From positions 64,001 to 128,000 of the forward strand of contig RDNZ01000002.1 in assembly GCA_011364905.1 (NCBI GenBank): 64,000 nt of DNA, in the 5' to 3' direction. Origin of the DNA: Candidatus Thorarchaeota archaeon. Its GTDB lineage: Archaea; Asgardarchaeota; Thorarchaeia; Thorarchaeales; Thorarchaeaceae. The notes below the pieces were generated by a model, which worked only from the letters and a program-made list of their open reading frames with translations, was not told where the DNA came from and did no database searches. How positions within the stretch are numbered: position 1 is the stretch's first letter; each line of letters opens with the position of its first letter. The position numbers and the translations under genes were made by a program. Positions 48,711-64,000 of the stretch are shown in pieces.

Positions 48711-48950
48711 TCAGCTCAAATCCCTCCAGTGGTTTTTACGGGATGTAAGGAGCATCTTCGATGTCACGTTCGAGTCCAATGGTTCATAGACCAATTCCTC
48801 AGCAGGGTGCTCAGGCTCGGACTTAATATGAGTAGAGAGGGATAGATGACTCTGAGAAGAGAGATTGGATTTGAGGGTGGGAGAAAGAAGAGCCACGCAA
48901 TCTATCCGAGCCTGAACCTGATTCTCCTTTTCACTATTATACAAATTCAT
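48711..48950 (-). CDS. small hypothetical protein
   Basis: ATGA overlap with the upstream gene and it fills the gap to the giant gene. No motif. Confidence 0.35.
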   Translation of the reverse strand: MNLYNSEKENQVQARIDCVALLSPTLKSNLSSQSHLSLSTHIKSEPEHPAEELVYEPLDSNVTSKMLLTSRKNHWRDLS

Positions 48951-49546
48951 GCACCTCCACCCGCATACATAGTATAGTAAATGAAACCAAGAATCATAAT
49001 GAATCCAATGAACTCAATAGCGCCGCTTCGAGGCTTATTCTTCAAGGCAGCCACTACAAGAGAGAGGTCTCCGGACCGCAAGGAGCAGTTGAAAAGAATC
49101 CCGAGAGCCACCCACCAGAATACGAAAATCCAGAGTGGTTCCACATAGATCATTACGGGTAAGACTATCAAAGCAAATGCTGCAAAGACTGCAGCCACAA
49201 CGTTCAGAAACAGGACAATGAGTACAATGCCTACTCTAGGTGGTCTGTCGACCTTGAGGAATACATTGATCTCGCCATAGGTTGATGAACTTCCAACATC
49301 TTCGACATCAACCCTGAATCCCTTGGCAATAAGAAATCGTATCCCCATATAAGCGAGGGTTCCCGGAAGGAAGACAATAGTAAGAAACGTCATGAGCTTG
49401 TTTCTTGTCCAGTCCTCGAACTCGCGTTTCTGCCCAGACAACAACAGTAGGCCTCTCAGGATTGTGGCTCCAATGATTACATAGGGAGTCACACTGAATG
49501 AGAAGAACAGATTGGCAAGCATCAACGTTCCAATGTCAGATTGCAC
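48947..49546 (-). CDS. membrane protein, possible inactive M50/DUF3267-like metallopeptidase
   Basis: About 5 TM. FLPGTLAYMGIR occupies the usual PGxxxHExxH position, and there is a later S-x-D (LRSGDL). Confidence 0.55.
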   Translation of the reverse strand: MQSDIGTLMLANLFFSFSVTPYVIIGATILRGLLLLSGQKREFEDWTRNKLMTFLTIVFLPGTLAYMGIRFLIAKGFRVDVEDVGSSSTYGEINVFLKVDRPPRVGIVLIVLFLNVVAAVFAAFALIVLPVMIYVEPLWIFVFWWVALGILFNCSLRSGDLSLVVAALKNKPRSGAIEFIGFIMILGFIYYTMYAGGGA

Positions 49547-49896
49547 TCTTCGAGATCCTTCCTCCCATTATGACTGTTGCCTATTCCATCGTGGCAGTTT
49601 GAGTCTTTCATGGTAGGTATGTAAATGCACAGAGTATTCCTAAGCTTTCAGGACAGGCTATTTGAAGAACGATAAATAAGAAAGTAGGAAAATCTAAACA
49701 ATAATATTCTCCCGTCTTTTTTAGAAGTTTTTGATTTCTATTTTTCGCGAATAAAGCACCCATATCGCTTATCTACTATAGGCTTGGGTCCAAAAGTGCA
49801 ACAAAGACGTGCTCCTTTGGCTCAATTCTTCTTTGGATATGAATACAGGTTCGCAAACCTTCGATGTGTCTATAGGTAACCAAACGTCACTCTTCA

Positions 49897-50892
49897 TTAC
49901 ACAAAGCTTTCCAGTGTTGTCTGTGTGTTACCAAACATTTTCCATATATGCACCAGCTCACGGGTTTTGGCTTCTGCCCTATCCTTCCCCATTGCAGGTT
50001 GGAGAAGTCTGACAAGTCTCGGAGTTATGAGCGGCTTTAAGGTTAGGTCCACGCCCTTTGCACTCATAAATGAGGCTTCGTCAAAAACCTCTCTGGCCTC
50101 GATGTAGTCCTCTCTTTCAGACAGTTTCAGACCTCTTGCTTTCAGCAAATATCTCAGACCGCCATATCGTTTCAATTCAATTGCACCTTTCCGTGGTCCG
50201 AGACCCTTGATGCCTTTCTTATGAAAGTCACATCCGCAAACTATTGCTAGGTCTCGAAGCAGTTCAAGATCAAGGTCCAAAACTCGCTCCAGCTCACTAA
50301 GGGTTGTGTACTCCATGGTCCCCTTGGACAACTGAAGACTCTTGATGACGTGAGGACTGCCGAATAACAGGGCATCAGCGTCATTGGAAACCACAGAACC
50401 TACTAGACCCTCTCGACACAGGACTGCACCAAACATCTCTGCCTCGGATGGCGATGTAATTGCGGGTATCCCTGCTGCACGACAAAGGTCTTTGACGTGA
50501 TTGACTGCGAAGTACATCCTAACAGCAGGACTCTCTCTTAGTGACTCTACAATCTTAATGTCGTGTGTGTCCTGCTTGATGAGAAACCGTTCATATAGCA
50601 TGTGAGCTGTAGTTATGAGTTCAGGATTCGGTTTACGTTTCAGGGATTCAGGCGGTCCATCGAAAAATAGCGCTGGAAGAATATGGCGTTTAAGCGCTTG
50701 ACGAATCAGTCCAAAGGTTATGTGAATATGTGCCATGGGTATCTTGTTCGATGAGATCGGTCGAATGGTGGACAACCTGCGCATCAAATAGTTGGGAGCA
50801 TCGACTGCAATTTTGGGAGTGAACAGCTCTGAAACATTGGCCCACTTCCATGGCACCAGGTTCTGCCAGTTTTTCACTCCCATTCCAATCAA
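49897..50892 (-). CDS. FEN1/XPG-family 5' nuclease with C-terminal PIP box
   Basis: MGV start, AVDA, FFDG, SEAE, SNDADALLFG, GCDF, H3TH GIKGLGP, C-terminal QTTLESFV. Confidence 0.88.
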   Translation of the reverse strand: MIGMGVKNWQNLVPWKWANVSELFTPKIAVDAPNYLMRRLSTIRPISSNKIPMAHIHITFGLIRQALKRHILPALFFDGPPESLKRKPNPELITTAHMLYERFLIKQDTHDIKIVESLRESPAVRMYFAVNHVKDLCRAAGIPAITSPSEAEMFGAVLCREGLVGSVVSNDADALLFGSPHVIKSLQLSKGTMEYTTLSELERVLDLDLELLRDLAIVCGCDFHKKGIKGLGPRKGAIELKRYGGLRYLLKARGLKLSEREDYIEAREVFDEASFMSAKGVDLTLKPLITPRLVRLLQPAMGKDRAEAKTRELVHIWKMFGNTQTTLESFV

Positions 50893-51608
50893 CCCGTTCC
50901 TTTGAGAGTCCTCGCTCCCTTGAGTCCCAGCCGCACCACCACTGGATCTGGTAGTGGATGAACAGGACTTCGTTCCACTTGTACTCTGAGACCATCAGCT
51001 GCCATATTCATGCTTGCTATATGGACTGTTGTGTCCACGCCATGAGCAATCACATTCCCGCCAACTGGCTTCAGAGCGCCAGTGTCCCAGTCCCTGCTTG
51101 AGTGATCAGTCAAGGCAACATGAAGATCATTGTCATTCACTAGTATACGAAGAATCTCCAATGTGTGCTGAAGCGCACGCTGCCTACCCTTAGATCCGAT
51201 TCTACCACTCAGGTTAAGGATGCCTGTGAGACTATCCACTGCGACTACTCGAACGTCCCTCATGCAGCCTATCCCCTGTGCTAGTTCCTGCAGGTCCGAA
51301 AGCTCAAGCACCTGTCCCACTATCACATTTCTCAGCAGCTCAGCTTCCTTTCCAAGCAAGGCACGGGTGAGAGGTGAGCTAAAGTTATTCCCAGAATCGA
51401 TGAATACACTCCGTCCTCCATTGAGAACACCACCAACAACAATTGCATGAGCTACAGTGGTCAGAGGTTTTCTCTCTGAGCTATGTATCAGACTGATTTG
51501 GTTTGGTAGTATCACTTGTCCCAGAGTCTCATCCAATGGTCGTGGTCGTAACCGAACCAGTGATTCCTCATGAACTGGTATGTTATCAAGCGGTAGACTC
51601 TCCGGCAA
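50889..51608 (-). CDS. RadA/RadB-family paralogue with degenerate Walker A
   Basis: LDETLG, SLIHSSERKPLT (dead P-loop), VFIDSGN, VAVDSL, PVGGNVIAH. Confidence 0.75.
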   Translation of the reverse strand: MPESLPLDNIPVHEESLVRLRPRPLDETLGQVILPNQISLIHSSERKPLTTVAHAIVVGGVLNGGRSVFIDSGNNFSSPLTRALLGKEAELLRNVIVGQVLELSDLQELAQGIGCMRDVRVVAVDSLTGILNLSGRIGSKGRQRALQHTLEILRILVNDNDLHVALTDHSSRDWDTGALKPVGGNVIAHGVDTTVHIASMNMAADGLRVQVERSPVHPLPDPVVVRLGLKGARTLKGTG

Positions 51609-52575
51609 CCTCTACACCTCCCATCGATAATTGCGCAATATCACGACCAAGTAGAACGTGAGCCTCTCGACCATGTGGTAGCTGTTCGAGGTCGAATCCC
51701 GGTGCGGTATCACTTTTGATGACTACTCGTAACCCCGTTCTGTTTGGAAACACGGTGATACGATTAGGCCACATCTCAATAAGTTTCTTCACGGTGCTTT
51801 CCTCAACAGCCACCTTATACTCATTCAATGTCATGCCTATATCATCCTCCATTAGTGGAAGACTGAGTATCGCATTGGTCATGAAAAGTGAGAGAACCTG
51901 CAAGCTTTCAGCTCCCTTCTCAGCTAGTGCTTGCTGGACTTGTTTCAAGACCTTCTCTTCTCCTTCAGTTCGTACAATCAAGATGTCGCATTCTTCGTAT
52001 CTTGTGATTGACACCGGAAGGAGTGGTCGTTCACGAAGAAGATCTAGGACTACTGCCCTCATACTATTCGGAAGGATTATTGCCTTCATGTTGAGCTTGT
52101 CAATGGACGTCCAAAATCTGCTATGTGAAACTGAACTCCGTCCTAGTATTGGAATCGAATGTCCAAAGGACGCCATTGGCTCCAGAAGGGCAGAAAATCG
52201 CTCCGTGATGCTACCAGGCTCTTTTATTCTGCTACAACCGATAATAGTTCCACCCATTGCGAGAAAAGCAGCAATCAATCCAAATGGTAATACAACAAAG
52301 AGCATCACGACTCCTGTATAGACGATGCAAGCCCATGAAACCACATTGAGTAAAAGGGACAGTGGTTCCTTGGTTTCCCTGCGGGCGATAAAGAGCATAA
52401 TGATGGTTCCTCCCCAAACAATGACAAGAGGCTGAATATTTCCTAGCCGCCATGCTAGGACCACAGAAGCAACAGAACTCAGTAGCTGCCCACCCAGAAA
52501 AAGAGCAACCGCTCCCGCCAGAGCATATACCATTAAGCGGAAAATTGACTTTCCGAACATTCGCTTCTCCTCCAT
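51586..52575 (-). CDS. hypothetical protein, N-terminal about 4 TM plus soluble domain
   Basis: Hydrophobic first ~115 aa. Overlaps both neighbours. Confidence 0.75.
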   Translation of the reverse strand: MEEKRMFGKSIFRLMVYALAGAVALFLGGQLLSSVASVVLAWRLGNIQPLVIVWGGTIIMLFIARRETKEPLSLLLNVVSWACIVYTGVVMLFVVLPFGLIAAFLAMGGTIIGCSRIKEPGSITERFSALLEPMASFGHSIPILGRSSVSHSRFWTSIDKLNMKAIILPNSMRAVVLDLLRERPLLPVSITRYEECDILIVRTEGEEKVLKQVQQALAEKGAESLQVLSLFMTNAILSLPLMEDDIGMTLNEYKVAVEESTVKKLIEMWPNRITVFPNRTGLRVVIKSDTAPGFDLEQLPHGREAHVLLGRDIAQLSMGGVEVAGESTA

Positions 52576-53189
52576 TCTTGAGTTGGTACTGATAGTCGGA
52601 CAACTCCTTTGATATCGATCATCATTCTTGCCAATGGGTTCCCATCAATCAACAATCTGGAGTCCCTCTCCAGGCTTCTCACTACCCGAATGTCCACTGG
52701 TTTCCAAATCAGAATTGATTCGTGCATCACTGGTGTAACTCGTTCTTCCAGACTGCGAACTTCACTCACAAGGACAACCTTTACTCCTCGCTCCGTTAGA
52801 GCAACCAATGATGGTAGAGCATTCTCGATCAAATCCCGACCCCACATTATCTCTTCGCGTCGAGTCATGTCAAGCACCCGTGTTATGGGGTCTACTACAA
52901 TTAACGATGTGTCATCTGGAAGCATCTCACAGACTGAGAGTATGCCCTCTTGTACCTCTTTATGTCCATTGAAAATGTTCACAGTGATTTTGCTGCTGTT
53001 TTTTGTATTGGATTTCAAAGCTCTCACAAAGGAGCGTTTTCCATCAGCACAGATCCATCTCACAATACCGTCTCTTGCAGCTTCTGCAGCAAGGGAGCAG
53101 GCTAGTAGGGTCTTCCCAGATCCAGCCTCACCCCAGATATGGAAAAGGTCGCCCATCCTCAACAAAACTTTAGCCCCCAGTACTACCAC
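52533..53189 (-). CDS. RadB/Rad51-paralogue-like RecA-fold ATPase
   Basis: HIWGEAGSGKT, WICADG, IVVDPI, VVLVSEV. No N-terminal HhH domain. Confidence 0.8.
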   Translation of the reverse strand: MVVLGAKVLLRMGDLFHIWGEAGSGKTLLACSLAAEAARDGIVRWICADGKRSFVRALKSNTKNSSKITVNIFNGHKEVQEGILSVCEMLPDDTSLIVVDPITRVLDMTRREEIMWGRDLIENALPSLVALTERGVKVVLVSEVRSLEERVTPVMHESILIWKPVDIRVVRSLERDSRLLIDGNPLARMMIDIKGVVRLSVPTQEWRRSECSESQFSA

Positions 53190-54852
53190 GCTCCTTCTTT
53201 CGGGTGGGAAAGTGAGTCCGTGATGATGAGCTTGTCACACTGTGACGCTGGAGTTTGCTTCGTTTAACAACCTGCTCACTGGTCTCATCCTCTGCAGCAA
53301 GGAGAACTTGGACCGACTCCGCTGGTTCTTCATCGACTGTCTTGGCAACGACCATAGGTGGGTCTGCAAACTCCTTTCTCGTCCGATCTGGTTCTTTTAT
53401 GACCCTATCATTTGCTCCAGGGACTTCCTCTGTGTTTCCCATCACCTGCAAAAAACTGTCGAGTTCATCTTCACTCTCTGCACTAGCCGGAGCCATTTCC
53501 TCTCTTACAGGAGGTTCCTCCGGTTCAGCAAGATCCTTGTCAATCTCCATGACAATCTTTTTACTGGCATGAAGGTTGAGGATATCATCAATCCTGTTTT
53601 TCACTTCGGGACTCAGAGCACCAACATCAAAGAGAGCGTTGTTAAGAACTCCAAGGTGTCCGATAATCTCATGTTCCTTCAAAGGTGTGCTGCTATGTCC
53701 GGTAAGGCCAACATACGCTAGACCGAGAGCTTCTTCCTCACCCTCCCCGAATTCTAACCCGATGTTCTTGAATAAGCTCAAGAATTTTTCAAGACCAGGA
53801 TCACCAGAGAGATTAGGCATTTCGACAGTGCTAGTAGGAGTAAGCCTTACGCATTCATCTAATATTGTAAACAGGGAGCCCACTGATTTGTTGAAATCGC
53901 CAGTTTCTATAGATTCGGCAGCACTATCCATCAGCGGGGTCACTATGAAGTTTAGTGTGCCAACGAGTTCAAGTCGGTTAGCATTCTCCATTATTGAAGA
54001 TGTGACCCGGTTAGAATCTCCAACCTCAGACAAAGCAGAAACCTCTTCATTTAGAGCACTACGAAAGCTGCCTATTGCAGTGTTTGCTCCCTGGAGCATC
54101 CATGAACCAAGCAGAAATGATATGCAGAAAACGACAAGCGGGAAGATTAGTGTTCCATTATTCAATAACGCGCCTGCAATGCCGAACCCAGCCATCACCC
54201 CCATGACAATACAGAGTATACCGAGCCAAGACCTCCTCAGACCTGTTTCTAAATCATCCCACTTAGTGGAGCTCACATTCTTCTGAACATCATGCAAGTG
54301 AGATCGAGAGTCACTACTTAGCAGGAGTCCAAGTTCATTATCAGGTAAGATACGGGATGAATCAGTAAGCCACGATAAGTCTCTACGAGAGCTGCCCTCC
54401 TTGTATACAGCGTAGATAGTACGAGTTTCATGAATTAGGGATGATGATTTCGAATCAATGGACCTCATAACAGAGAACTCCACTCGCCCAAATGACGATA
54501 GGAGAGACCTCGCCTCGAACGCGTCCAGTAGTCCTACATCTTTGAGGATGCTCTTCAAGGACCCATTGACACTTTCGAGTATTGCGGCTTGCATAGCCAG
54601 AGTGGAGCGACCAAACCTGGCCTTCTTCAGGTCAAGTACATAAGCAACATCTACATAGACGCCCCTGGTTCCTGGAATGCCAACCAGTCGCACTCCCAAG
54701 ACCAACCCATTGGGATATTCTGCTGTTCTATGACCCGCTCCTTCTAGCACTCGAACAACGTCCGTGGTGGCCCGCTCCAAACTTGTGCCAATGGACGACT
54801 CACTCTCTTCTTCCTCAGTGATTTTTTCATCATCAACTGCTGTCATTAACAT
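53170..54852 (-). CDS. hypothetical protein with central 2-TM hairpin and acidic disordered C-terminus
   Basis: TM pair around residues 210-255, helical domain, acidic tail. Overlaps both neighbours. Confidence 0.75.
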   Translation of the reverse strand: MLMTAVDDEKITEEEESESSIGTSLERATTDVVRVLEGAGHRTAEYPNGLVLGVRLVGIPGTRGVYVDVAYVLDLKKARFGRSTLAMQAAILESVNGSLKSILKDVGLLDAFEARSLLSSFGRVEFSVMRSIDSKSSSLIHETRTIYAVYKEGSSRRDLSWLTDSSRILPDNELGLLLSSDSRSHLHDVQKNVSSTKWDDLETGLRRSWLGILCIVMGVMAGFGIAGALLNNGTLIFPLVVFCISFLLGSWMLQGANTAIGSFRSALNEEVSALSEVGDSNRVTSSIMENANRLELVGTLNFIVTPLMDSAAESIETGDFNKSVGSLFTILDECVRLTPTSTVEMPNLSGDPGLEKFLSLFKNIGLEFGEGEEEALGLAYVGLTGHSSTPLKEHEIIGHLGVLNNALFDVGALSPEVKNRIDDILNLHASKKIVMEIDKDLAEPEEPPVREEMAPASAESEDELDSFLQVMGNTEEVPGANDRVIKEPDRTRKEFADPPMVVAKTVDEEPAESVQVLLAAEDETSEQVVKRSKLQRHSVTSSSSRTHFPTRKKERGSTGG

Positions 54853-57013
54853 TCCTCCCTAATCGCTCTTCTATTCCCCCAAGGAGCCCACTGCTCAGTT
54901 CCACGAGTCTTGAGAGACCCCCTAATCCTGCAAGCACAACAATGCTGGCTAGCAACCATCGTGACCTCTCCAGTAGACTATATGCATCCCCCACTGGAAT
55001 ACCAACGTTCTCTGAAATGTCTCTTATGGACATAGAAGTGGTAGCGGCGGCACCAATCAGGTTTTCAAACGACTCATCAAGCTCGGAAACAGACTCCATC
55101 GACACAAGATGCCTTACGAGAGAGAGAAGCGAAACAGCATCCTCTGTGAATGGCATCATGGCCATTAGCTCTCGTATCGTCCTCATGCGGAGATACAGCC
55201 TATTCACTGTCCTTCCGAGTCTTGTGATCTTGAAAGCGCCTTCCTTGCTTCCCTCAATGAGCCCCAATCGTGATAATGCACCTGTGGGACTAGACTCTTC
55301 CATGGCGATGGGCACGATGTAGTTCGCTAGAGGTCGTATCTTTTCATTGCGTGATGCCTTGAGTCCGAGAGAAACCAGATGCATACAAAGGATACCAGTT
55401 TCATCCAATGGATTACCACATGAACAACTTGCACCTTCTACAGTGCCACTGGTCTGGAGTCGGGTGGAGAACCGACAGGTGAAGCTCCCACCTTGAAAAC
55501 CTGAAACTATTCCTCCGAGGACATCCTCGCTGGTTTCCCTGATGCTGACGGAGCCTAGTGCGTCTTTTCTTGCAGCCTGAACTGTGTCAGGCAGGGCATG
55601 TTTCTCAATAACCGATTCCGCTGAGATCTCTCCGAGATGTAGGGGCCTCATGGGACTTCTAACATCTCTCACCGCGCAGAACACGAGATAAGACTCGCTC
55701 ATTATGTCCTCCATCTGTTTCACTGTGCTCTCATTCATGGTGTCAAGAAGGACAAGAATTTGCTCGGTAAGCGATGCCGCTGAACCGAGCCTACTCCTCA
55801 CTCTTTCATATCGAGGAATCAGGGTTTCACCAACCTCATCAAAGTATCTGCGCTTCACAAGCTCGCACTCACCTCTACTACTAGTGAGGATGACACCAAA
55901 GCCCATAACATCATGTCCAGGTCTCCCCGCACGTCCAAGCATTTGATGGACTGTGTTAGCAGAGAGCATCTCTCTATGATCCTCCGGCGAACGACAACTG
56001 GTGAGCACAACGGTACGAGCTGGGAGATCCATTCCTGCAGCTAGGGTAGATGTTGCACAGATTACACGTAACATGCCTTTTCTGAACAAGCGCTCCACCA
56101 AAGCTCTGACACTCGAGCTGAGTCCAGCATGGTGGAATCCTACGCCATTATGCAAGACTTTCCGTAGGGGCGCCGGAACTGTCATGAAGGATGTTTCTAC
56201 AGAGTTAATTTCATCGTCCAGGGCTTTTCGCTCAATGGAACCAAGTTGCCTAATCACATTTTCAGACAATCGTTCAGCCTCAAGTTCAGCAAACCTTCGG
56301 GTTCTGTGAAAGGTGATGACTTGACCGTTTGCCTGCACTACCGTCATCACTGTTTTTTGGACTGCTCGGGCCTTATCGGGTGTGTGGACTACCTTACAGA
56401 CAAGCGGAACAGGACGCTCATCAGATGCAACAAGTCCGCAACCAAGCCATTCCGCTAGTTCATCTGGGTCCTTAACTGTGGCTGAGAGTGCTACTATCTG
56501 CAGGTCGTCAATGCTTCGTTTCAAACGAAGGATAGTGCTTTCTAGTCTTGCTCCTCGTGTCGAGTCCGAAAGGTTTTGGACCTCATCTATGACCACTGTT
56601 CCGACCTCTGGAAGCCACTCCACCTGGTGTCTCAACAGAGAGTCTGCTCGTTCATAGGTGGTCACAATGATGTCGTATTCTGCCATATCCTCTCCTGAAA
56701 GATGCAGGTCACCGGTAGTCACTCCAATTCTGATGGCATTTTCTTGGTACCGCTCTCTCAGAACTCGTGTTATCTGATATGCCAGAGCTCTTAGGGGTAC
56801 CAAAAACAAGCCTCTTCGACCATTGAAAATCGATCTAAGCAGGCCCATCTCCCCCACCAATGTTTTTCCCGATCCTGTTGGAGCACTCACCAATATACTG
56901 GCCCCATCAAGAAGACCCTTGTCAATTGCCTCAGTCTGAACACCCCTTGGTGTGACACCAACTTGCTCTAGCATCCGAGTGACACTTGCAGGGATATCAG
57001 TGACAGACATCAT
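54833..57013 (-). CDS. Ski2-like (Hel308/HELQ/Mer3-type) DExH helicase with inserted SWIM zinc finger
   Basis: APTGSGKT, VPLRALA, DEVQ, SAT, FHHAGL, TSTLAAGMDLPA, QMLGRAGR, plus CSC-x10-CMH. Confidence 0.88.
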   Translation of the reverse strand: MMSVTDIPASVTRMLEQVGVTPRGVQTEAIDKGLLDGASILVSAPTGSGKTLVGEMGLLRSIFNGRRGLFLVPLRALAYQITRVLRERYQENAIRIGVTTGDLHLSGEDMAEYDIIVTTYERADSLLRHQVEWLPEVGTVVIDEVQNLSDSTRGARLESTILRLKRSIDDLQIVALSATVKDPDELAEWLGCGLVASDERPVPLVCKVVHTPDKARAVQKTVMTVVQANGQVITFHRTRRFAELEAERLSENVIRQLGSIERKALDDEINSVETSFMTVPAPLRKVLHNGVGFHHAGLSSSVRALVERLFRKGMLRVICATSTLAAGMDLPARTVVLTSCRSPEDHREMLSANTVHQMLGRAGRPGHDVMGFGVILTSSRGECELVKRRYFDEVGETLIPRYERVRSRLGSAASLTEQILVLLDTMNESTVKQMEDIMSESYLVFCAVRDVRSPMRPLHLGEISAESVIEKHALPDTVQAARKDALGSVSIRETSEDVLGGIVSGFQGGSFTCRFSTRLQTSGTVEGASCSCGNPLDETGILCMHLVSLGLKASRNEKIRPLANYIVPIAMEESSPTGALSRLGLIEGSKEGAFKITRLGRTVNRLYLRMRTIRELMAMMPFTEDAVSLLSLVRHLVSMESVSELDESFENLIGAAATTSMSIRDISENVGIPVGDAYSLLERSRWLLASIVVLAGLGGLSRLVELSSGLLGGIEERLGRNVNDSS

Positions 57014-59361
57014 ACCTCGGACCCAACCTCCTCTGATTGACGCAGAGCCATGCTACCCTTCATGGTTATCCGATAATTCTTGTAGGAAACTCCTGCATGG
57101 GACTCGCTACCACGAAGAATCAGACTCGCATTCTCCAACCGTGCAAGAATAGCCTCGATGTCAACCTCCGTATGGCCCTTTGCGTTGAGAAAACGTCTGA
57201 CAGACTCCTCAGTGAGAGGCTCGTAGCGGGTAAGGAGCTTAAGAATCTCTTTCACAGATGCTCTGTCTCGTCCTCCAACCACAGCAAGTAGTGTTTTTGG
57301 TTTCCCTGCTTCGGGCCCGTCATCCGTTTTAGTTAGACTAGGCCTCGGAAGCATGTCAACTCCCTCATTGGATAGTGTTCTAAGCCCTGGTTCAGGTGCA
57401 ATCTTGAATGGCATACAAGTCTTTGCCTGTTCGTGCGACATGAGAGCATAGCCTCGCTCCATTACTCTCAGGAACGAACCTTCTCGCGATGATTGACGCG
57501 CCTTGCTATGAATTCCTGTCCCAACAACATCTAATGACAAGAGGTCAGATACATAAGCAATATCAGCGGACTCCCGCAACCTTAGAGCGATACATGAACC
57601 AAAGGCGTCCGCCGCATCCCACATTAAGGCTGATGGGTTGTTTACACTGAGTATAAGAGGTCCTCTCTTGAGGAGCCTCCGAACGATTCTCTCAGCCATT
57701 ACCCCCCGTTTGGTATACCTGAAAGTGCTTTTATTTGTGACAAGATGTTCAGGCATATCAATGACAGTGACCAAATCAGATTCTTTTGCAAGTCCTGACA
57801 ATTTGAGGCTCATAAGATCCAGTGCAAACATATCGAGATCAAGAGCTCCAATCGCGAGGTTCACAACTACAAGCTCATGAGAGGCGATCCTACTAAGAGA
57901 AATCGTCTGAGTACCATAGAATGCTTTTGCTCCTGACCCCTGATAGAGCCTCTTGATGGCATCGAGCGCAAGTGCTGAAGACTTGGATAATCTAACATTC
58001 TGTGGAGGGACTGCACCCTCCTGAAGGGATTCATGCTCAGGATCAATAACTACATCGGCGAGTGTTCCATTCCCGAGAGCAACCACTCTGCTCAATGCAA
58101 CCTCAAAGTCAGCGGCTGGGCTGAGATTAGTCCCAGCAAGAGTTTCCAATAGCAGTAGCAACTCCGAAACATACTGTGTTCTGGGAATTCCCTCAGAGTC
58201 CACAGGATTCAGTACAAAGTCCTTCCCGAGACTAACGGCGAGACCGCTGGAGCTGACACCAGCCAGACTTTGGCAATCATCGTTTATTGTGAGCACTAGA
58301 ACCTTCTTTCCCTTGGCTAAAATCTGGTCAATAAGAACACTGAGAACTTGCTTTCGATCCCGCCAATCTCCTCCGCATAATAAGAGACCACGTTCAAGGT
58401 CAGAATGCATCAACCCCACTGAGGGACCTGTCTTTAGGGTTTCGGGATTCACAACAACGCCCAGAGGGTAGTCATCAGACCTGCTTCTTATTGGCGCAAT
58501 GAACTCCCCCGGAACGTTACTTCCCACCTCAGGACCTAGTTCGCTTGGCAGTTGTACTAGCCACTCTGCCAACTCCTTTCCTGTGGCAAAGAAAGTGGGC
58601 GAACTGCTACAGAGGTCCCACTCTTCAAGTCTTTGGCCAAGGTCTTTCTCCTTCAACCTCCTAAAGCCGCTGTCAGGAACACTCCCTTTCACTTGCCCCT
58701 CAACTAGTCGGACGTCAGATTCCGTATGAGAATGTCCAACAAAATACAGCTGTGAACGCCAGAGCCCCCCCCGTGCATGAAAGTAGGTCTTCCTCTGTGA
58801 TGAGGAAATATGATTGAGATATCTCTCGATTATGGAAGTGACAACACCATCTCTTGCAACCTGTTTTGAGTCAGATGGAAACAGATCTGCAACCATCAAG
58901 AAACCATGTGAACTGTCTAGACCTCGAAGAAGTTTGCTTAGATTTCCTTGTAGGATTGGCCGAGCTTTCTTCATGTTGAGTGCAATGAGATGGCTTTCCT
59001 TTCCAAGACCCCTACAATGTAGCGATTTTTTCTCTTCACTGTAACTCACATCTGGGTCGGGTACCCTATACCAACTAGTATCATCGAGCGACCGAGTTTC
59101 AAGGTAGTTTTGAATCAAGGGCAGAACAAGCATCAGCATTAGGATTATTCCAGTAATGAATATCGTGACATAAGGCAGCTGAATCACTGTAATCATAATA
59201 ACCAATGAGAGTCCAAGAGCATAATCCCATGGAAGCTTGACTGACCTGTCATCCCATCGTATCTCTGTGTCTGTCGTTATGGTCATGCCAGACGCCTCAA
59301 GCTGGTCCATAGGATCCTGCGCAGGCTCTGAGCCCATGATGTTCCCTCGTTTCTTAGTCAA
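57010..59361 (-). CDS. membrane-anchored HerA/VirB4/FtsK-like ATPase-fold protein with degenerate Walker motifs and C-terminal wHTH
   Basis: Two N-terminal TMs, then DLERGLLLCGGDWRDRK, KKVLVL, VLNP, TVIDMPEH, SVNNPSAL, CIALRL...D and MERGYAL in HerA/VirB4 motif order. C-terminal LARLENASLI...YRITMKG. Confidence 0.68.
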   Translation of the reverse strand: MTKKRGNIMGSEPAQDPMDQLEASGMTITTDTEIRWDDRSVKLPWDYALGLSLVIMITVIQLPYVTIFITGIILMLMLVLPLIQNYLETRSLDDTSWYRVPDPDVSYSEEKKSLHCRGLGKESHLIALNMKKARPILQGNLSKLLRGLDSSHGFLMVADLFPSDSKQVARDGVVTSIIERYLNHISSSQRKTYFHARGGLWRSQLYFVGHSHTESDVRLVEGQVKGSVPDSGFRRLKEKDLGQRLEEWDLCSSSPTFFATGKELAEWLVQLPSELGPEVGSNVPGEFIAPIRSRSDDYPLGVVVNPETLKTGPSVGLMHSDLERGLLLCGGDWRDRKQVLSVLIDQILAKGKKVLVLTINDDCQSLAGVSSSGLAVSLGKDFVLNPVDSEGIPRTQYVSELLLLLETLAGTNLSPAADFEVALSRVVALGNGTLADVVIDPEHESLQEGAVPPQNVRLSKSSALALDAIKRLYQGSGAKAFYGTQTISLSRIASHELVVVNLAIGALDLDMFALDLMSLKLSGLAKESDLVTVIDMPEHLVTNKSTFRYTKRGVMAERIVRRLLKRGPLILSVNNPSALMWDAADAFGSCIALRLRESADIAYVSDLLSLDVVGTGIHSKARQSSREGSFLRVMERGYALMSHEQAKTCMPFKIAPEPGLRTLSNEGVDMLPRPSLTKTDDGPEAGKPKTLLAVVGGRDRASVKEILKLLTRYEPLTEESVRRFLNAKGHTEVDIEAILARLENASLILRGSESHAGVSYKNYRITMKGSMALRQSEEVGSEV

Positions 59362-59631
59362 CTAGGTCCTTCCCCCTTGTCTTGCCAAGACTTTCAACAT
59401 CATCTTAATGCGAATCAGCATTTTCTGATCTGAAGAGTTCACCACTAGTGAATCGTTCATAATGACCAGCTCAGGATGCTCATGCTTCGAAGGATGCCCG
59501 AGTACCATTAGAACTGGCTCCTTGGATACAGTTGTCCAAGTGTATCCATGGCCCCGTTTCAGGAAGTCCATCACCGCGTCAGCCTCCACACCTGATGGAA
59601 TGTTTAGTGATACATCCTCACCCACTGACAA
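59362..59631 (-). CDS. small hypothetical protein
   Basis: 89 aa, coupled to both neighbours, RBS GGAGG. Confidence 0.7.
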   Translation of the reverse strand: MSVGEDVSLNIPSGVEADAVMDFLKRGHGYTWTTVSKEPVLMVLGHPSKHEHPELVIMNDSLVVNSSDQKMLIRIKMMLKVLARQGGRT

Positions 59632-60211
59632 CGCCTCCTGTGTTCACCAGTTGCATCTCGTAGAGTCCTGCACGCTCCACAGGTGTATGAGGATAGGATG
59701 AACGCATGGCACTCTCTAACGTTGTCACATCATCAAACACCTTCTCAGCCAACATCCTGATTATGCGTGCCCCATTCCAAAATCGGAGAGACCGTCTGAC
59801 AACCTGCATACCAACCAGCGTTGAGTTGTCATCCAAAGGGCGACACACGAAGAACCGAACCTCACATTGACTCTCTTTCTTGAACTGCTCACTCATAGCT
59901 CTCAGTACCTGTTTGGCTGCGTGCGAAACATCAATCCCCAAGGGTACGCTAGCCAGTAAGCAACCTGCTTGAACCTCTACAGTCCAATTGCGACGAATGG
60001 CCATGGTGCCGGTTGCCTCATCCCAGAATACAACGACGGGTCGTTTCCATAAAACGAAGAGAGCGATTACTAGAGACGCTAAACCAATCCCAACCAAGGT
60101 CTCGAAAGCAAATCTTCCTTTGGGGTCCATGATGATTCTAGTTGACCATGCCGCCAGAACAGCAGCTGGAACAGTCCATTTCACCCACTCATAATCCTGG
60201 TAATTCCTCAT
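59618..60211 (-). CDS. hypothetical protein, 2 N-terminal TM plus soluble alpha/beta domain
   Basis: RBS GAGGAGGGTG, 3 nt after the XPD stop codon. Confidence 0.75.
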   Translation of the reverse strand: MRNYQDYEWVKWTVPAAVLAAWSTRIIMDPKGRFAFETLVGIGLASLVIALFVLWKRPVVVFWDEATGTMAIRRNWTVEVQAGCLLASVPLGIDVSHAAKQVLRAMSEQFKKESQCEVRFFVCRPLDDNSTLVGMQVVRRSLRFWNGARIIRMLAEKVFDDVTTLESAMRSSYPHTPVERAGLYEMQLVNTGGVVSG

Positions 60212-60214
60212 TCA

Positions 60215-62152
60215 TCACACCCTCCTCACAAACATCCCGATGGCGTCTCGCAGCTCATCCTCTCCTCTGTATGGCCAGAGATCTGCGGCTGTGTCCTCTC
60301 CGAATACGTCAATGTGTTTCAAGAACCGCTTGTCTAATAGCACAACTATGCCTTGATCCTCCGGTGACCTCCTGAGTCTTCCTGCCATTTGTGCAACTTT
60401 TCGTATTGATGGTACAACCACAGCATAATAGTACCCTGAGCCAGCTCCGTATCTTCGATCATAGAAGTCCTGCAACGCTTTTTGATGACTTGTCGGAGGA
60501 CTGAATGGTATCCCCACACCAATAATGAGGTCCACCATGCTAGACCCCGCCTCCACCAAGTCTACTCCTTCGCTCACCTTTCCACCATAAACACAGAACA
60601 AGGCATGGGGCTGCGAGGCGAGAGCTTCCTTCACATCATCAATTCTACTGCGTCTATCCTCAATAAGACGCTCTCGAAATCCTGCGTTTACTCCAAAACT
60701 CAAGACATCTCGCATGATTGCATAGCTCGGGAAAGCAATCATGGCGCTCTTGTTGGCGGGAACTGCCTCGAGTACGGTTTCGATCCTCTCACTCAAAGTA
60801 CGCCAAAGGTCAGGTCCTCTGGACTTGTAGCTTGTTGATACTTCTCTGTCCACTAGAATGAGCCTTGTTCCTCGTGGATAGGGACTGGAAAGTTCCTCAC
60901 CTTTTGCACTACCAATTCCAAGTATTCGTTTGTAGTGAGAGAGTGGTCTCAGAGTTCCAGACATAAGGAGCGAGGAGCGTGCCATCCTGAGTATCGGAGC
61001 AATTAGTCCAGCAGCATTCAGTGGACGAATCTTCAGGATAACGCGCATGATGTCTTGGTGCTCCTCCCAGCCGGTTGACTTCTCAATGGTGACCAACCAG
61101 TCATCACTCTCGGTAGCTTTTCTTCCAGCATAGAGGAAAGACACTAGTCGATCCACTGGTGTGTCAACAGGGACAGTCTCATCCGCACCTTCAAGCAGAG
61201 TACTATACTCGATGAGCTGTTCCAAATCGCCTTGTGCAGCAAAACGCGGATAAGCGTCCCACTTGTCAAGACATCGTTCGTCCTTCAATGTGTCGAGATT
61301 CACCGAAACGGTCTCCCAAAGAAAATCGACTGTTTCCTCCAACCAACGCACACCAGTTTCTTTGACGATGTCGCGCTTGTGCTCTCTGAGCCATAGCAAG
61401 TCAGCCCCACGCAGCTCCGCAGCCTCAGCCTCTAGAACATGAGATGAGAGGTTATGAGCCTCATCCACAAGGATGTCAATCTCGTACAAGCCAATTCCTA
61501 GCGATGAAAGAAGGGCCATTTGGACACGGCTTCTAAACAGGTAGTCATAGGGACCAACAATGACTCTACTTTTCTTAGCGCACCATCTAAGCACCTCGTA
61601 GGGACACATACCATTGTCACGGCCAACATCCTCAGCTACCGACTGACTCACGACATTGTCTTTGAGGAGCTCATCTATAGTTTCTAGGAATGCCTGACGA
61701 GGTTGATGTCGTCCATCAGCATTTCTTCTGTAGCAATTCCAATAATAGGTGCAGTTGCCCGTTTTGACAAGGGCTGCGCACTCACGCATGAAACCCAACG
61801 AAGAAATATGCCTCATCTGACCCTTCATGGGACACACGTGTTTCCTAGAAACCATGCTGGTAGCTGTAAGCAGTGTATCCTGGGTGTAGATGCGTAATTG
61901 TGTGAGTTCTTCCTCGAACACCTTTGATTGCGAGTGAGTTCGGGTAAGCACGAGTAATCGTGACTCAGGATCATTCACACGTGCAGCCAAGTAACCGGAC
62001 AGAGCCGCAATGGTCTTTCCGATTCCGCAGTCGGCAGAGAGTAGACCCACCGTTCCCTCAGAGAATACTTCCTCTGCATATCGTAATGCGCGTTCTTGGT
62101 GCGGTCGTGGCTCATAGGGGAACCAGTCCATTGGGTCAGGTAGAGTTGCCAT
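60215..62152 (-). CDS. XPD/Rad3/DinG-family Fe-S DNA helicase
   Basis: Q motif RPHQ, ADCGIGKT, four Cys (HVCP, ECAA, NCTY, MCPYE), DEAH, SGTL, EGVD, QMAGRLRR. Confidence 0.92.
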   Translation of the reverse strand: MATLPDPMDWFPYEPRPHQERALRYAEEVFSEGTVGLLSADCGIGKTIAALSGYLAARVNDPESRLLVLTRTHSQSKVFEEELTQLRIYTQDTLLTATSMVSRKHVCPMKGQMRHISSLGFMRECAALVKTGNCTYYWNCYRRNADGRHQPRQAFLETIDELLKDNVVSQSVAEDVGRDNGMCPYEVLRWCAKKSRVIVGPYDYLFRSRVQMALLSSLGIGLYEIDILVDEAHNLSSHVLEAEAAELRGADLLWLREHKRDIVKETGVRWLEETVDFLWETVSVNLDTLKDERCLDKWDAYPRFAAQGDLEQLIEYSTLLEGADETVPVDTPVDRLVSFLYAGRKATESDDWLVTIEKSTGWEEHQDIMRVILKIRPLNAAGLIAPILRMARSSLLMSGTLRPLSHYKRILGIGSAKGEELSSPYPRGTRLILVDREVSTSYKSRGPDLWRTLSERIETVLEAVPANKSAMIAFPSYAIMRDVLSFGVNAGFRERLIEDRRSRIDDVKEALASQPHALFCVYGGKVSEGVDLVEAGSSMVDLIIGVGIPFSPPTSHQKALQDFYDRRYGAGSGYYYAVVVPSIRKVAQMAGRLRRSPEDQGIVVLLDKRFLKHIDVFGEDTAADLWPYRGEDELRDAIGMFVRRV

Positions 62153-62154
62153 CC

Positions 62155-62742
62155 TTATTCCCCCAGGTACAGACAGTTCTCGGCATTATGTATTCTGAAC
62201 TTTAGAGAAAAGTAGGAGCGAAGCAACAGATGGAATGTCTTTGCCGCTGCTGGCGAGTTGAAACCGTTCTTTTTGCCCACCATGCTTTCCAGTATCTGAG
62301 GGCTGAAACCTCTTCTGCGAGCTTGTCTCCAGAAGGTTCTCTCCACCTCCTCTACTGTGGCTTTATAGAAGTCAAGTGTCTGCTTCACTACTCGTTGGAG
62401 ATACTGCACAGCCTCCTTGGCCCTATGAGGGATCTCTGATACCTTCGTTTCAGTGGGGAGATAGACCGCCATACCTTCCCTGCTTTCAAGGTACACCTCC
62501 GAAGGTACACCTCTGGTACCACGTAGAACCTCAAGATGAGACAGAAGTCGCGGCAGCTGCGAGAGGGTAGGTCTTGCTCTATCTCGCCAATCCACCGTCG
62601 TGACCACATATAATTCTGGGTCAGGTTCGTGGTAAGCAACTGGAACGGTGGTCAGTCTGTGGGATGTATCACGCATTAAGAGGTTGGTCATGTTTATGAC
62701 AGATGCATGGGATTGATACGCAGGAGGCAGAACCACTGCCAT
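62155..62742 (-). CDS. hypothetical protein
   Basis: 195-aa soluble ORF coupled by a TGATG overlap. Confidence 0.75.
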   Translation of the reverse strand: MAVVLPPAYQSHASVINMTNLLMRDTSHRLTTVPVAYHEPDPELYVVTTVDWRDRARPTLSQLPRLLSHLEVLRGTRGVPSEVYLESREGMAVYLPTETKVSEIPHRAKEAVQYLQRVVKQTLDFYKATVEEVERTFWRQARRRGFSPQILESMVGKKNGFNSPAAAKTFHLLLRSYFSLKFRIHNAENCLYLGE

Positions 62743-63182
62743 CAGTATTCGTCCCCCACTGCTTTCAGAATCCCATCCATGTTCACAATTAAGTCCTCGT
62801 CCTCCAGCTGGTCTAAGAACCTAACAGCCTTGTCGATTTCGATGCCTGCTTCCTCGCACTCTTGAAGGACCCTATCACGACTCACTCCTGTTCCACGATT
62901 CAAGTCACTGAGGTCAGACACTATATTCAGCACGCGCTTCTTGACACCAAGACCATGTCTCGACTTGGACCTATGCGTAGTTGGTTTCCTCCAGACAATC
63001 CTCTGTATCTCTAGAAGAGCTCCCTCAACTGAATCGACATACTTCCAATCAGGACTAGGCTCGATTCTTCTGGAACAGAGATTGCACTTTGATTCCTCAT
63101 CCTCACTGTACACAGTAGCGTATCCGGTATAGCCGCAATGAGGACACATGAAGATTCTGTACATCTGTTCCTTTGAGGTCAC
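62742..63182 (-). CDS. Zn-ribbon plus winged-helix protein
   Basis: CPHC...CNLC, and a C-terminal GVSRDRVLQECEEAGIEIDKAVRFLDQLEDEDLI wHTH. Confidence 0.78.
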   Translation of the reverse strand: MTSKEQMYRIFMCPHCGYTGYATVYSEDEESKCNLCSRRIEPSPDWKYVDSVEGALLEIQRIVWRKPTTHRSKSRHGLGVKKRVLNIVSDLSDLNRGTGVSRDRVLQECEEAGIEIDKAVRFLDQLEDEDLIVNMDGILKAVGDEY

Positions 63183-64000
63183 TCCTCTTGCTCCTCCTCC
63201 TCAGTCTTCTTTCCCTTCTTCTGTTTCTTCTCGTCCTCGTCATCATCCGGCGAACCTAGAGACCCAAGTTTCTCAGAGATCATCTTTTCGGCGTTTTTCT
63301 TCTCTGTTGCATCGTTGTATAGACCGCCCCAGCCAATATGTACCTCAACATCAAACTCCGGAACTCCCGAGTTGTCCTTGAGTGAAATCTTCCGCTTCTT
63401 CTGCGCTCCGACCCTTGTGAAGAACCGATAGTCAGATGCGTGACTCAGAACATGACCACCAACAGGTGCAGATGGGTTTCCAGACCCATAGGTAGAGATT
63501 TGAGTCGTCACCTGATTTGTATACACAAAGATGGCATCGGTTGCAAGACCAAGACGACGCATCCAGTTCATCAGGGAGTTGATACTATACTGACGAGATG
63601 CCAAAGTACCGATGCCAGTGTACTCCTGCCGAAACAGACCGGTAAAGGAGTCTATCACCAGCATGCTGTACTCGCCTTCAGCCAGCATGAGTTGAATCTG
63701 CTCGGCATACTCCTCCATCTGACTGCTGAGCGCAATAGTTGCCACACTAATGTTACCAAGCACAACCTCTGGATCCAAGCCCCACCGTATCGCATTTGCA
63801 CGGATATGCTTGGTTTTGAAAGATGACTCCGTGTCCAACCACAAGATCCTTCCTTCTAAGCCGCCTTGTTCAAGGGGCAACTGGCACCTCACTGCAAGAT
63901 GGTGACAGAGGAAAGTCTTCCCTCCTCGCGCATTACCGTATATCTCAACTATTGATCCTGCTTCCAAACCGCCGAAAAGCTTGCTATCCAAGCTTTCAAT
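63179..64000 (-). CDS. radA: RadA/Rad51-like recombinase (5'-truncated by window edge)
   Basis: GNARGGKT, CQLPLEQGGLEG, WLDTESSF, VIDS...FRQEYTG...LASRQ, TNQV, PVGGHVLSH. Divergent from canonical RadA, so probably a paralogue. Confidence 0.85.
   Translation of the reverse strand: MESLDSKLFGGLEAGSIVEIYGNARGGKTFLCHHLAVRCQLPLEQGGLEGRILWLDTESSFKTKHIRANAIRWGLDPEVVLGNISVATIALSSQMEEYAEQIQLMLAEGEYSMLVIDSFTGLFRQEYTGIGTLASRQYSINSLMNWMRRLGLATDAIFVYTNQVTTQISTYGSGNPSAPVGGHVLSHASDYRFFTRVGAQKKRKISLKDNSGVPEFDVEVHIGWGGLYNDATEKKNAEKMISEKLGSLGSPDDDEDEKKQKKGKKTEEEEQEE

Follow-up and report, generated by a model that had tools for sequence, protein, structure and literature searches.

A conserved Thorarchaeota operon combines divergent paralogues of recombination enzymes with membrane proteins, including a predicted VirB4-like protein

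Why does a Thorarchaeota chromosome carry a second set of recombination enzymes whose genes are interleaved with those of membrane proteins? The question is raised by a minus-strand operon in the genome G000 (3.08 Mb, 81% complete), which reaches position 49897 of a stretch of 64,000 nt (G000:C25:64001-128000, here called the window) and runs across its end. Close homologues carry names that place G000 in Thorarchaeota, an Asgard lineage. We know of no account of how Asgard archaea exchange and recombine DNA. The original prediction had read this operon as a dedicated and duplicated toolkit for processing DNA at the membrane, and our analyses support a dedicated membrane-linked DNA-recombination system, on the grounds of conserved synteny, separate housekeeping copies of the enzymes and co-occurrence of the membrane genes with the enzyme genes. 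As to its role, we tentatively favour DNA uptake or exchange coupled to recombination by a machine at the cell membrane, a reading that is quite possible without being probable. Positions are those of the window unless a label precedes them; other genomes are labelled G001, G005, G014 and so on, and fetched loci L002, L015 and so on.

The open reading frames (ORFs) called on the window included all 13 minus-strand ORFs of the original prediction, g01 to g13, at the predicted positions between 49897 and 64000. In the order of transcription they are as follows (TM, transmembrane; dN/dS, ratio of nonsynonymous to synonymous substitution rates; pLDDT, predicted local distance difference test).

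63179..64000, minus strand, cut by the window end (full length of 356 aa at L002:1180-2250): g01, RadA/Rad51-family recombinase paralogue, Pfam Rad51 193.8 bits at full length, with an HHH_5 N-domain
62742..63182, minus strand: g02, four-Cys zinc ribbon with a probable winged helix; C13, C16, C33 and C36 invariant in 10 orthologues
62155..62742, minus strand: g03, conserved 195-aa protein, syntenic in 11 genomes, dN/dS 0.04
60215..62152, minus strand: g04, XPD/Rad3-family Fe-S helicase paralogue with DEAD_2, HBB and Helicase_C_2 domains
59618..60211, minus strand: g05, 197-aa protein with a single TM segment (residues 36-54 by hydropathy) and a conserved soluble domain
59362..59631, minus strand: g06, conserved 89-aa protein, syntenic in 10 genomes, dN/dS 0.05, no family match
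57010..59361, minus strand: g07, 783-aa predicted membrane-anchored protein of VirB4/HerA fold, from an AlphaFold2 model and fold comparison
54833..57013, minus strand: g08, Hel308-like superfamily 2 helicase into which a SWIM zinc finger is inserted; 344 bits with the NCBIfam Hel308-type model, residues 6-444 only
53170..54852, minus strand: g09, 2-TM protein; AlphaFold2 model with a mean pLDDT of 74
52533..53189, minus strand: g10, RadB-like small RecA-family ATPase; weak NCBIfam radB match (E 4e-8), Walker A GEAGSGKT intact and conserved
51586..52575, minus strand: g11, about four N-terminal TM segments by hydropathy and a soluble domain
50889..51608, minus strand: g12, weakly Rad51/RadB-like paralogue without Walker A; Pfam Rad51 E 9e-8
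49897..50892, minus strand: g13, FEN1/XPG-family nuclease paralogue with XPG_I and XPG_N domains

Every junction was read from the sequence, and the claim that neighbouring genes overlap or lie at most 3 nt apart was borne out throughout. The genes g01 and g02 share a GTGA overlap (63179-63182), g02 and g03 overlap by 1 nt in TGATG (62740-62744), and 4-nt overlaps were found at g07/g08 (ATGA, 57010-57013) and at g12/g13 (TTGA, 50889-50892). Longer overlaps join g05/g06 (14 nt), g08/g09 and g09/g10 (20 nt each), g10/g11 (43 nt) and g11/g12 (23 nt), and the gaps are 2 nt at g03/g04, 3 nt at g04/g05 and 0 nt at g06/g07. When the contig was followed past base 64000, the predicted minimum of 13 genes grew to 14 in G000, g00 to g13, with the RadA-like gene complete; g00 (146 aa, L002:2247-2687, beyond the window) overlaps the start of g01, and upstream of it lie about 800 nt of non-coding DNA and then a divergent GH3 gene. 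In relatives an extra first gene, gm1 (about 250 aa), immediately precedes g00, which gives 15 genes. A comparison of two species gave dN/dS of 0.04-0.12 in 13/13 comparable genes, ratios that are approximate since dS is about 1-2 and near saturation. From these sequence comparisons, all 13 compared genes are judged real and under purifying selection. The gene array is far more than chance. A scan for bacterial-type promoters and terminators, which does not apply to archaea, found no more sites than in shuffled sequence.

Gene order that differed among relatives had been named beforehand as one of three results that would speak against the prediction, none of which occurred; the order is conserved across six genera. 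Where the fetched stretch takes in the whole array, the same 14-gene order stands in eight other genomes, of five genera. The full g00-g13 order is kept in G001, G014, G016, G100, G071 and G052 and the g01-g13 order in G002, and the loci of G013, G005 and G247 agree over the extent covered. Four further loci are incomplete, being cut by the end of the contig or of the fetched stretch or missing one or two genes. In addition, two genomes without g07 also lack the Hel308-SWIM gene, in line with the expectation that the membrane genes co-occur with the DNA enzymes.

To what extent are the enzymes distinct from the ordinary repair proteins of the cell? The predicted succession of families, namely RadA, XPD, Hel308-SWIM, RadB, a Walker-dead RadA paralogue and FEN1 with a PCNA-interacting peptide (PIP) motif, was recovered, with the correction that the 197-aa protein g05 has one clear TM segment and not two. 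Scores were compared with the curated NCBIfam cut-offs (RadA 259; rad3 246.95; Hel308-type 887-1216; fen_arch 351.95), and g01 (242.8), g04 (170.8), g08 (344) and g13 (104.8) each fell below the cut-off of their family, which marks each of them as a divergent paralogue. By sequence, g01 is thus a member of the RadA family and not the housekeeping orthologue. The match of g08, of high score over its helicase domains, ends at residue 444, so that the five-domain Hel308 architecture, which includes a C-terminal HhH domain, is not present. Its C-terminal part instead carries the SWIM signature CxC-x10-CxH, whose residues C530, C532, C543 and H545 do not vary among 11 orthologues. SWIM goes unmentioned in a study of archaeal Ski2-like helicases. 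Alignment with orthologues and housekeeping copies showed that g01 keeps Walker A, Walker B and L2, that g04 retains the GKT motif, the DEAH box and four Cys, and that all catalytic acidic positions are conserved in g13, which ends in a PIP-like C-terminus (QTTLESFV, conserved as QxxLxxF[VF]). Walker A is lost in g12, while the Walker B region and a PVGGN motif are retained. The best PDB matches of g01, g04, g08 and g13 are archaeal RadA, XPD, Hel308/Hjm and FEN1, and none are eukaryote-specific paralogues.

Separate housekeeping copies, also predicted, were found elsewhere in G000 by tblastn followed by NCBIfam scoring, for RadA (476.8 bits), XPD (292.2 bits) and FEN1 (407.6 bits), together with a separate RadB-like gene that adjoins XPD, PolD, RPA and Lhr. 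For Hel308 the prediction held in relatives only: a full-length canonical Hel308 (about 770-836 bits) is present in four of them, two of which are without the operon, and none was found in the 81% complete G000 assembly. The housekeeping XPD, the RadB-like gene, the PolD large subunit, RPA and an Lhr-type helicase are grouped on one contig (L022:399-16861, G000:C46).

Comparisons of the two RadA copies further show that they have evolved differently. The housekeeping RadA of G000 is 86%, 84% and 75% identical to those of G001, G100 and G025, and the operon RadA is 59%, 52% and 40% identical to its counterparts. In a quick maximum-likelihood tree with Shimodaira-Hasegawa-like approximate likelihood ratio supports, the housekeeping copies form a clade (98) that follows taxonomy, the Thorarchaeota operon copies form a clade of their own (95), as the original prediction implied, and copies of two other families form a third (99); the tree does not settle the branching order among the three. 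Within the operon clade the copies of G000 and G005 join that of G071 (91), and the path between G000 and G001 is about 9 times longer for the operon RadA than for the housekeeping RadA. The identities and the tree together indicate that the operon paralogues are old, fast-evolving and exchanged between lineages. The possibility that the operon enzymes are the only copies, or ordinary orthologues, was rejected because separate canonical copies exist and the operon RadA falls in its own clade. A second RadA clade in some Asgard lineages is described in a 2025 preprint (10.1101/2025.05.23.655837), and the passages of the preprint available to us do not mention a gene cluster or genomic context.

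An enzyme set that covers unwinding, strand exchange and flap removal, with its motifs intact, could also serve an internal pathway of repair or chromosome maintenance. Its substrate would be DNA of the cell itself, attached to the membrane, and nothing would pass through the envelope. The pathway might restart forks, repair crosslinks or breaks, convert genes between copies of the genome or resolve DNA at division, with g07 as an FtsK-like tether, and the PIP-like motif of the FEN1 paralogue would fit replication-coupled action. To this explanation we give a minor though substantial chance, since the canonical repair genes already exist in the cell and since the operon, as described below, is dispensable, has been replaced by a version from another lineage and is linked to giant surface proteins and other exposed proteins in a conserved manner that a pathway confined to the cell interior would not readily account for.

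One pointer to the membrane is g07, which matches nothing in Pfam, NCBIfam, PADLOC or PHROGs. An AlphaFold2 model built with 23 homologues (mean pLDDT 74) predicts two N-terminal helices, then an N-domain of alpha/beta type, a domain of RecA type and, at the C-terminus, a winged helix; the two helices coincide with a hydrophobic segment in the hydropathy profile and are therefore taken as TM helices. The top Foldseek matches of the model were TrwK/VirB4 of R388 (E 9e-13) and Sulfolobus HerA (E 3.5e-12). With VIA-align, the modelled fold was closest to the VirB4 ATPase domain 4ag5 (Z 28.4, root-mean-square deviation 2.8 A, 327 residues), followed by HerA 4d2i (Z 25.7), the DndH C-domain (25.6), TrwB (about 21) and FtsK (about 15), which refines the predicted HerA/VirB4-like assignment towards VirB4. 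Because full-length TrwK aligns from about residue 98 of the model, part of the N-domain also appears to be VirB4-like. Homologue searches returned distant relatives of g07 of 814-1337 aa.

The other proteins of the operon gave far fewer leads, and no meaningful match to known structures was obtained for g05, g09 and g11. No matches were found for g00, g03, g05, g06 and g11 in the libraries searched, which comprised Pfam, PDB and PHROG for g03, family, PDB-profile and PHROG libraries for g05, and family, PDB-profile and ESM Atlas libraries for g11. The split N-terminal g07 genes of other Asgard lineages match the g05 hidden Markov model (HMM) weakly (E 5e-5), and hhalign comparisons of g05, g11 and g09 with g07 were not significant, so that a likeness of g05 to the N-module of g07 is a weak lead. 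The model of g09 predicts a beta-rich N-domain, a long hydrophobic helical hairpin (the 2 TM segments), a helical bundle and a disordered charged tail; a Foldseek search against PDB gave nothing under E 0.2, a wide VIA-align comparison gave only generic helical hairpins, and neither a PDB profile search nor ESM Atlas yielded a match. Every named match in the sequence search with g09 was from Thorarchaeota or Promethearchaeota. The small protein g02 weakly matches the profile of the MCM7 C-terminal region (E 0.005), which we took as a winged helix, and has one marginal PHROG match (E 0.0026).

The membrane link extends beyond the operon to genes downstream of it, listed here with the two copies of a shared 13-mer:

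48947..49546, minus strand: g15, membrane protein with about five TM segments, linked downstream of the operon in seven genomes
41836..48699, minus strand: g17, 2287-aa surface protein; Pfam Prenyltrans, Big_1 and Big_3_5
49783..49795, minus strand: second copy of the 13-mer TTTTGGACCYAAG, between g13 and g15, upstream of g15
L002:2990-3002, operon strand: first copy of the 13-mer TTTTGGACCYAAG, about 300 nt upstream of g00

The gene g15 lies about 0.3-3.5 kb downstream of the FEN1-like gene in G000, G001, G014, G016, G100 and G052, in some genomes with a convergent gene and a small gene in between, and directly follows g09 in G025, which has no FEN1-like gene. A giant surface protein follows g15 in G000, G052 and G025. 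In G000 this protein, g17, begins with a signal or TM segment, contains Ig-like repeats and a prenyltransferase-like alpha/alpha toroid, and is anchored by a TM segment at its C-terminus. The 3.08-Mb genome has two copies of the 13-mer TTTTGGACCYAAG and no more, where chance would give about 0.2; the two are on the operon strand, and a one-base variant, TTTTGGACCTATG (T for the final A), is located about 300 nt upstream of g00 in the closest relative, G005. The shared 13-mer suggests common regulation of the operon and g15-g17. Five membrane proteins are interleaved or linked with the operon.

A few observations on this neighbourhood stand apart. An identification of g17 as an obvious alpha-2-macroglobulin was rejected, as a CxEQ-type thioester motif was sought and none is present. 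Two small ORFs between g13, g15 and g17, at 48711-48950 (79 aa) and 49608-49763 (51 aa), are probably not genes, because they have no counterpart at that place in G025 and G052. A few kb upstream of the operon, at L002:5985-8014, two tandem TFIIB/TFB genes (322 and 329 aa) are followed by a gene for a large TPR protein.

How widely is this arrangement shared? A g07 gene was found in 17/24 genomes of the same genus and in 41/59 Thorarchaeaceae genomes, representing at least 14 genera. In the sister family (G025) the order is RadA, g02, g03, XPD, g07, Hel308 and g09, with g15 and the giant protein immediately behind. Searches with HMMs made from the Thorarchaeota orthologues detected smaller clusters in six other Asgard families, in which a Hel308-like helicase has a VirB4-like gene as its neighbour, often divided into one gene for the N-terminal and one for the C-terminal part; a RadB-like gene was present in 3 of these clusters, a RadA paralogue in 2 and a FEN1-like gene in 2. 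The Hel308-like gene lies within 8 kb of the VirB4-like gene in 6/7 inspected loci outside the Thorarchaeaceae, and the SWIM signature was also found in the cluster helicases of four further families. The core that recurs in other Asgard families thus consists of Hel308-SWIM, the VirB4-like protein and a RadB-like protein. Large exposed proteins are again encoded in or beside the clusters of other families, including M28-peptidase-like proteins of 888 and 1016 aa and, in family f8, a 1081-aa alpha/alpha-toroid protein. Besides these, the next gene after the VirB4-like one belongs to the NifH family (Fer4_NifH) in the clusters of two different Asgard families (L050:6299-7189 and L019:8800-9729), and in family f7 the co-directional cluster includes an Arf/Ras-like small GTPase gene, placed upstream of the Hel308-like one (L051:2913-3521).

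DNA uptake or exchange is favoured by four lines of evidence: the predicted VirB4-like platform, the five membrane proteins and giant exposed proteins that travel with the enzymes, the pairing of conduit and recombination genes in a known import system, and the housekeeping repair genes that are already present. This reading draws on gene context and on the modelled VirB4-like fold of one protein. The known import systems are Ced of Sulfolobales and Ted of Thermoproteales, domesticated type IV secretion systems (PMC9905601, PMC11868833), and Ted loci carry Rad50 and HerA-like genes beside homologues of VirB4, VirB6 and VirB2 (PMC9905601). Like the operon, Ced and Ted are chromosomal and archaeal, and in all of them a membrane-associated protein of the VirB4/HerA superfamily is encoded with small membrane proteins. 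The VirB4-type N-domain of Sulfolobales Ced is divided between the paralogues CedB and CedD, comparable to the division of g07 into N- and C-terminal genes in other Asgard lineages. Unlike Ced and Ted, the operon encodes a complete set of recombinase, mediator, helicase and nuclease, and its g07 lacks a GK[ST] P-loop, as does the whole family, adds a C-terminal winged helix and is accompanied by no recognised homologue of VirB6/CedA or VirB2/CedA1.

Several of these results weigh against uptake or exchange. The Walker A position of g07 reads hhhhGGxxx[ED]R, without GK[ST], in 23/23 Thorarchaeota sequences, and in the lack of a canonical Walker A, DNA pumping by g07 cannot be assumed. No VirB6/CedA-like channel was recognised among g09 (2 TM segments), g11 (about four) and g15 (about five) with Pfam for all three and PDB profiles for g09 and g11. 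A pilin like VirB2, CedA1 or TedC gave no sequence match in Pfam or in the PDB profile searches of g05 and g11, the hairpin of g09 being only generic, and genes for pili or competence were not seen in it or elsewhere in the cluster. Furthermore, six Thorarchaeaceae genomes listed as at least 90% complete have no g07 match, which indicates that the operon is dispensable.

The deviant P-loop is shared by nearly all of about 20 more distant Asgard homologues of g07, including split and 1260-aa forms, two of which lack the P-loop Arg as well, and the Walker B acidic pair is variable. The deviation is therefore a trait of the family, and a recent decay of an ATPase was rejected because GK[ST] is missing family-wide. 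That translocation by g07 cannot be assumed also lends weight to internal repair, as does the order of TM segments, ATPase fold and winged helix, which parallels FtsK. FtsK/SpoIIIE and Streptomyces TraB are active ATPases in which a membrane anchor is followed by a RecA-fold domain of the FtsK-HerA superfamily and then by a winged helix at the C-terminus, a domain order that g07 shares; the match of g07 to the FtsK motor domain (Z about 15) is, however, well below that to VirB4 (Z 28.4). Another comparable system is the archaeal Mre11-Rad50-HerA-NurA operon for end resection, in which a ring protein of the HerA superfamily is likewise joined to a nuclease for homologous recombination. The 17 genes scanned here contain no Mre11, Rad50 or NurA Pfam domains, and in contrast to HerA, g07 is predicted to be membrane-anchored, slightly closer to VirB4 in fold and deviant in its P-loop.

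To better understand the turnover of the operon, we compared the version of the congeners (type A) with the present version, which is common to G000 and G005 (type B). Measured from type A, type B is no nearer than the operons of other genera; it is slightly closer to the G071 operon. The operon of G000 has no gm1, and an intact gm1'-g00' pair is located 11 kb away, outside the window (C25:139409-140626; L002:13410-14630). Its two genes share 82% and 76% identity with the leading operon genes of G016 and G014; g00 of the present operon, in contrast, shares only 36-39% with theirs. The pair stands alone at the place where the congeners have their operon. At 61 nt past the pair lies an orthologue of the gene that flanks the 3' end of the operon in G016 and G014, and this position indicates that the type-A block from RadA to FEN1 was deleted in G000, leaving two intact genes behind; the pair may still serve the type-B operon. 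The flanking gene (about 650-690 aa, no Pfam match) is convergent to the 3' end of the operon in type-A genomes (L015:594-2675; L002:14686-16617) and diverges quickly, with 51-55% identity between G000 and its congeners. The operon flanks, comprising the GH3, 693-aa and 196-aa genes, are syntenic across species, and the position beside GH3 is stable across genera.

Such turnover is also what an anti-virus or anti-plasmid defence might show, in which the platform would sense or intercept DNA on its entry, leaving the helicases and nuclease to destroy or neutralise it. The patchy distribution, the fast evolution relative to the housekeeping paralogues and the replacement of one version by another within a genus would all agree with this, and HerA-type and Hel308-type proteins do occur in known defence systems. 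In PADLOC 2.0, however, only generic helicase-core matches (g08 to HamB, g04 to type IV DinG) and marginal mad8 matches were obtained, with no system-specific marker, and the eight unknown proteins had no PADLOC or PHROG match other than the marginal one of g02. No known defence system is made up of a full recombinase, its mediators and a PIP-bearing FEN1, the stable chromosomal position beside GH3 argues in the same direction, and the low dN/dS values show no diversifying selection. We therefore regard a defence function as unlikely.

The same events could alternatively reflect a domesticated remnant of an integrated conjugative or other mobile element spreading between Thorarchaeota, given the VirB4-like g07, the grouping of the G000/G005 version with that of another genus and the remnant of a former version at the ancestral site. 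The fetched loci showed neither an integrase nor a relaxase, a replication gene or terminal repeats; a search of a viral contig collection with the g07 profile returned no relative. With syntenic flanking genes and a presence in most genomes of the family in addition, this origin appears very unlikely.

On the favoured reading of uptake or exchange, a mechanism can be outlined. Inferred in it are the assembly of a complex at the membrane, where the DNA comes from and which way it moves, and all contacts between the proteins. With its two TM helices, VirB4-type N-domain, ATPase fold with a deviant P-loop and DNA-binding winged helix, g07 would act as a platform, regulatory or at least not a motor, whose probable origin is a type IV secretion system or a Ced-type DNA conduit, and would work with the membrane proteins g05, g09, g11 and g15. 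The DNA at this platform would most likely originate outside the cell or in a neighbouring one, with the linked giant surface protein g17 making the contact. Two helicases, the XPD-like one (5'-3' by family) and Hel308-SWIM (3'-5' by family), would unwind that DNA, and the two RadB-like mediators, one ATPase-competent and one without Walker A, would help to load the RadA paralogue. The SWIM finger plausibly docks these two mediators, and the PIP-bearing FEN1 paralogue would trim flaps at PCNA.

Discussions of how eukaryotic recombination mediators and sex arose usually start from single genes, for example RadA. Among the mediator modules of eukaryotes that are built on Rad51 paralogues, the Shu complex includes the SWIM protein Shu2/SWS1, and HELQ acts with BCDX2. 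The operon resembles these modules in placing a helicase of the Hel308/HELQ family, a SWIM finger and two short Rad51 paralogues, one of them without a working Walker A, beside a recombinase. It differs in that its SWIM finger is inserted in the helicase itself and that the best PDB matches are archaeal; the likeness is one of description, with no orthology shown. The operon might represent an Asgard lineage-wide apparatus for uptake or exchange, in which a VirB4-like platform derived from type IV secretion, with its deviant P-loop, and giant adhesins are wired to a recombinase of its own, a pair of Rad51-type paralogues and a SWIM-bearing Hel308/HELQ-type helicase. Such a prokaryotic sex-like system could be a source of the eukaryotic logic of HELQ, Rad51 paralogues and SWIM mediators, but in this full extent we consider the proposal doubtful.

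The original prediction knew of no described system with this composition, and our full-text search of the literature likewise found no description of one. The present analysis places the second recombinase in a conserved unit of 14-15 genes. Present in it as well are two helicases whose families have opposite polarity, two Rad51-type paralogues and a SWIM finger, along with a flap nuclease directed to PCNA, surface proteins and a membrane protein that resembles VirB4. This unit has been gained, lost and swapped between lineages, and it provides concrete candidates for a DNA-handling machine at the Asgard cell envelope. If the lineage-wide proposal is true, a sex-like system would exist in the closest relatives of eukaryotes.

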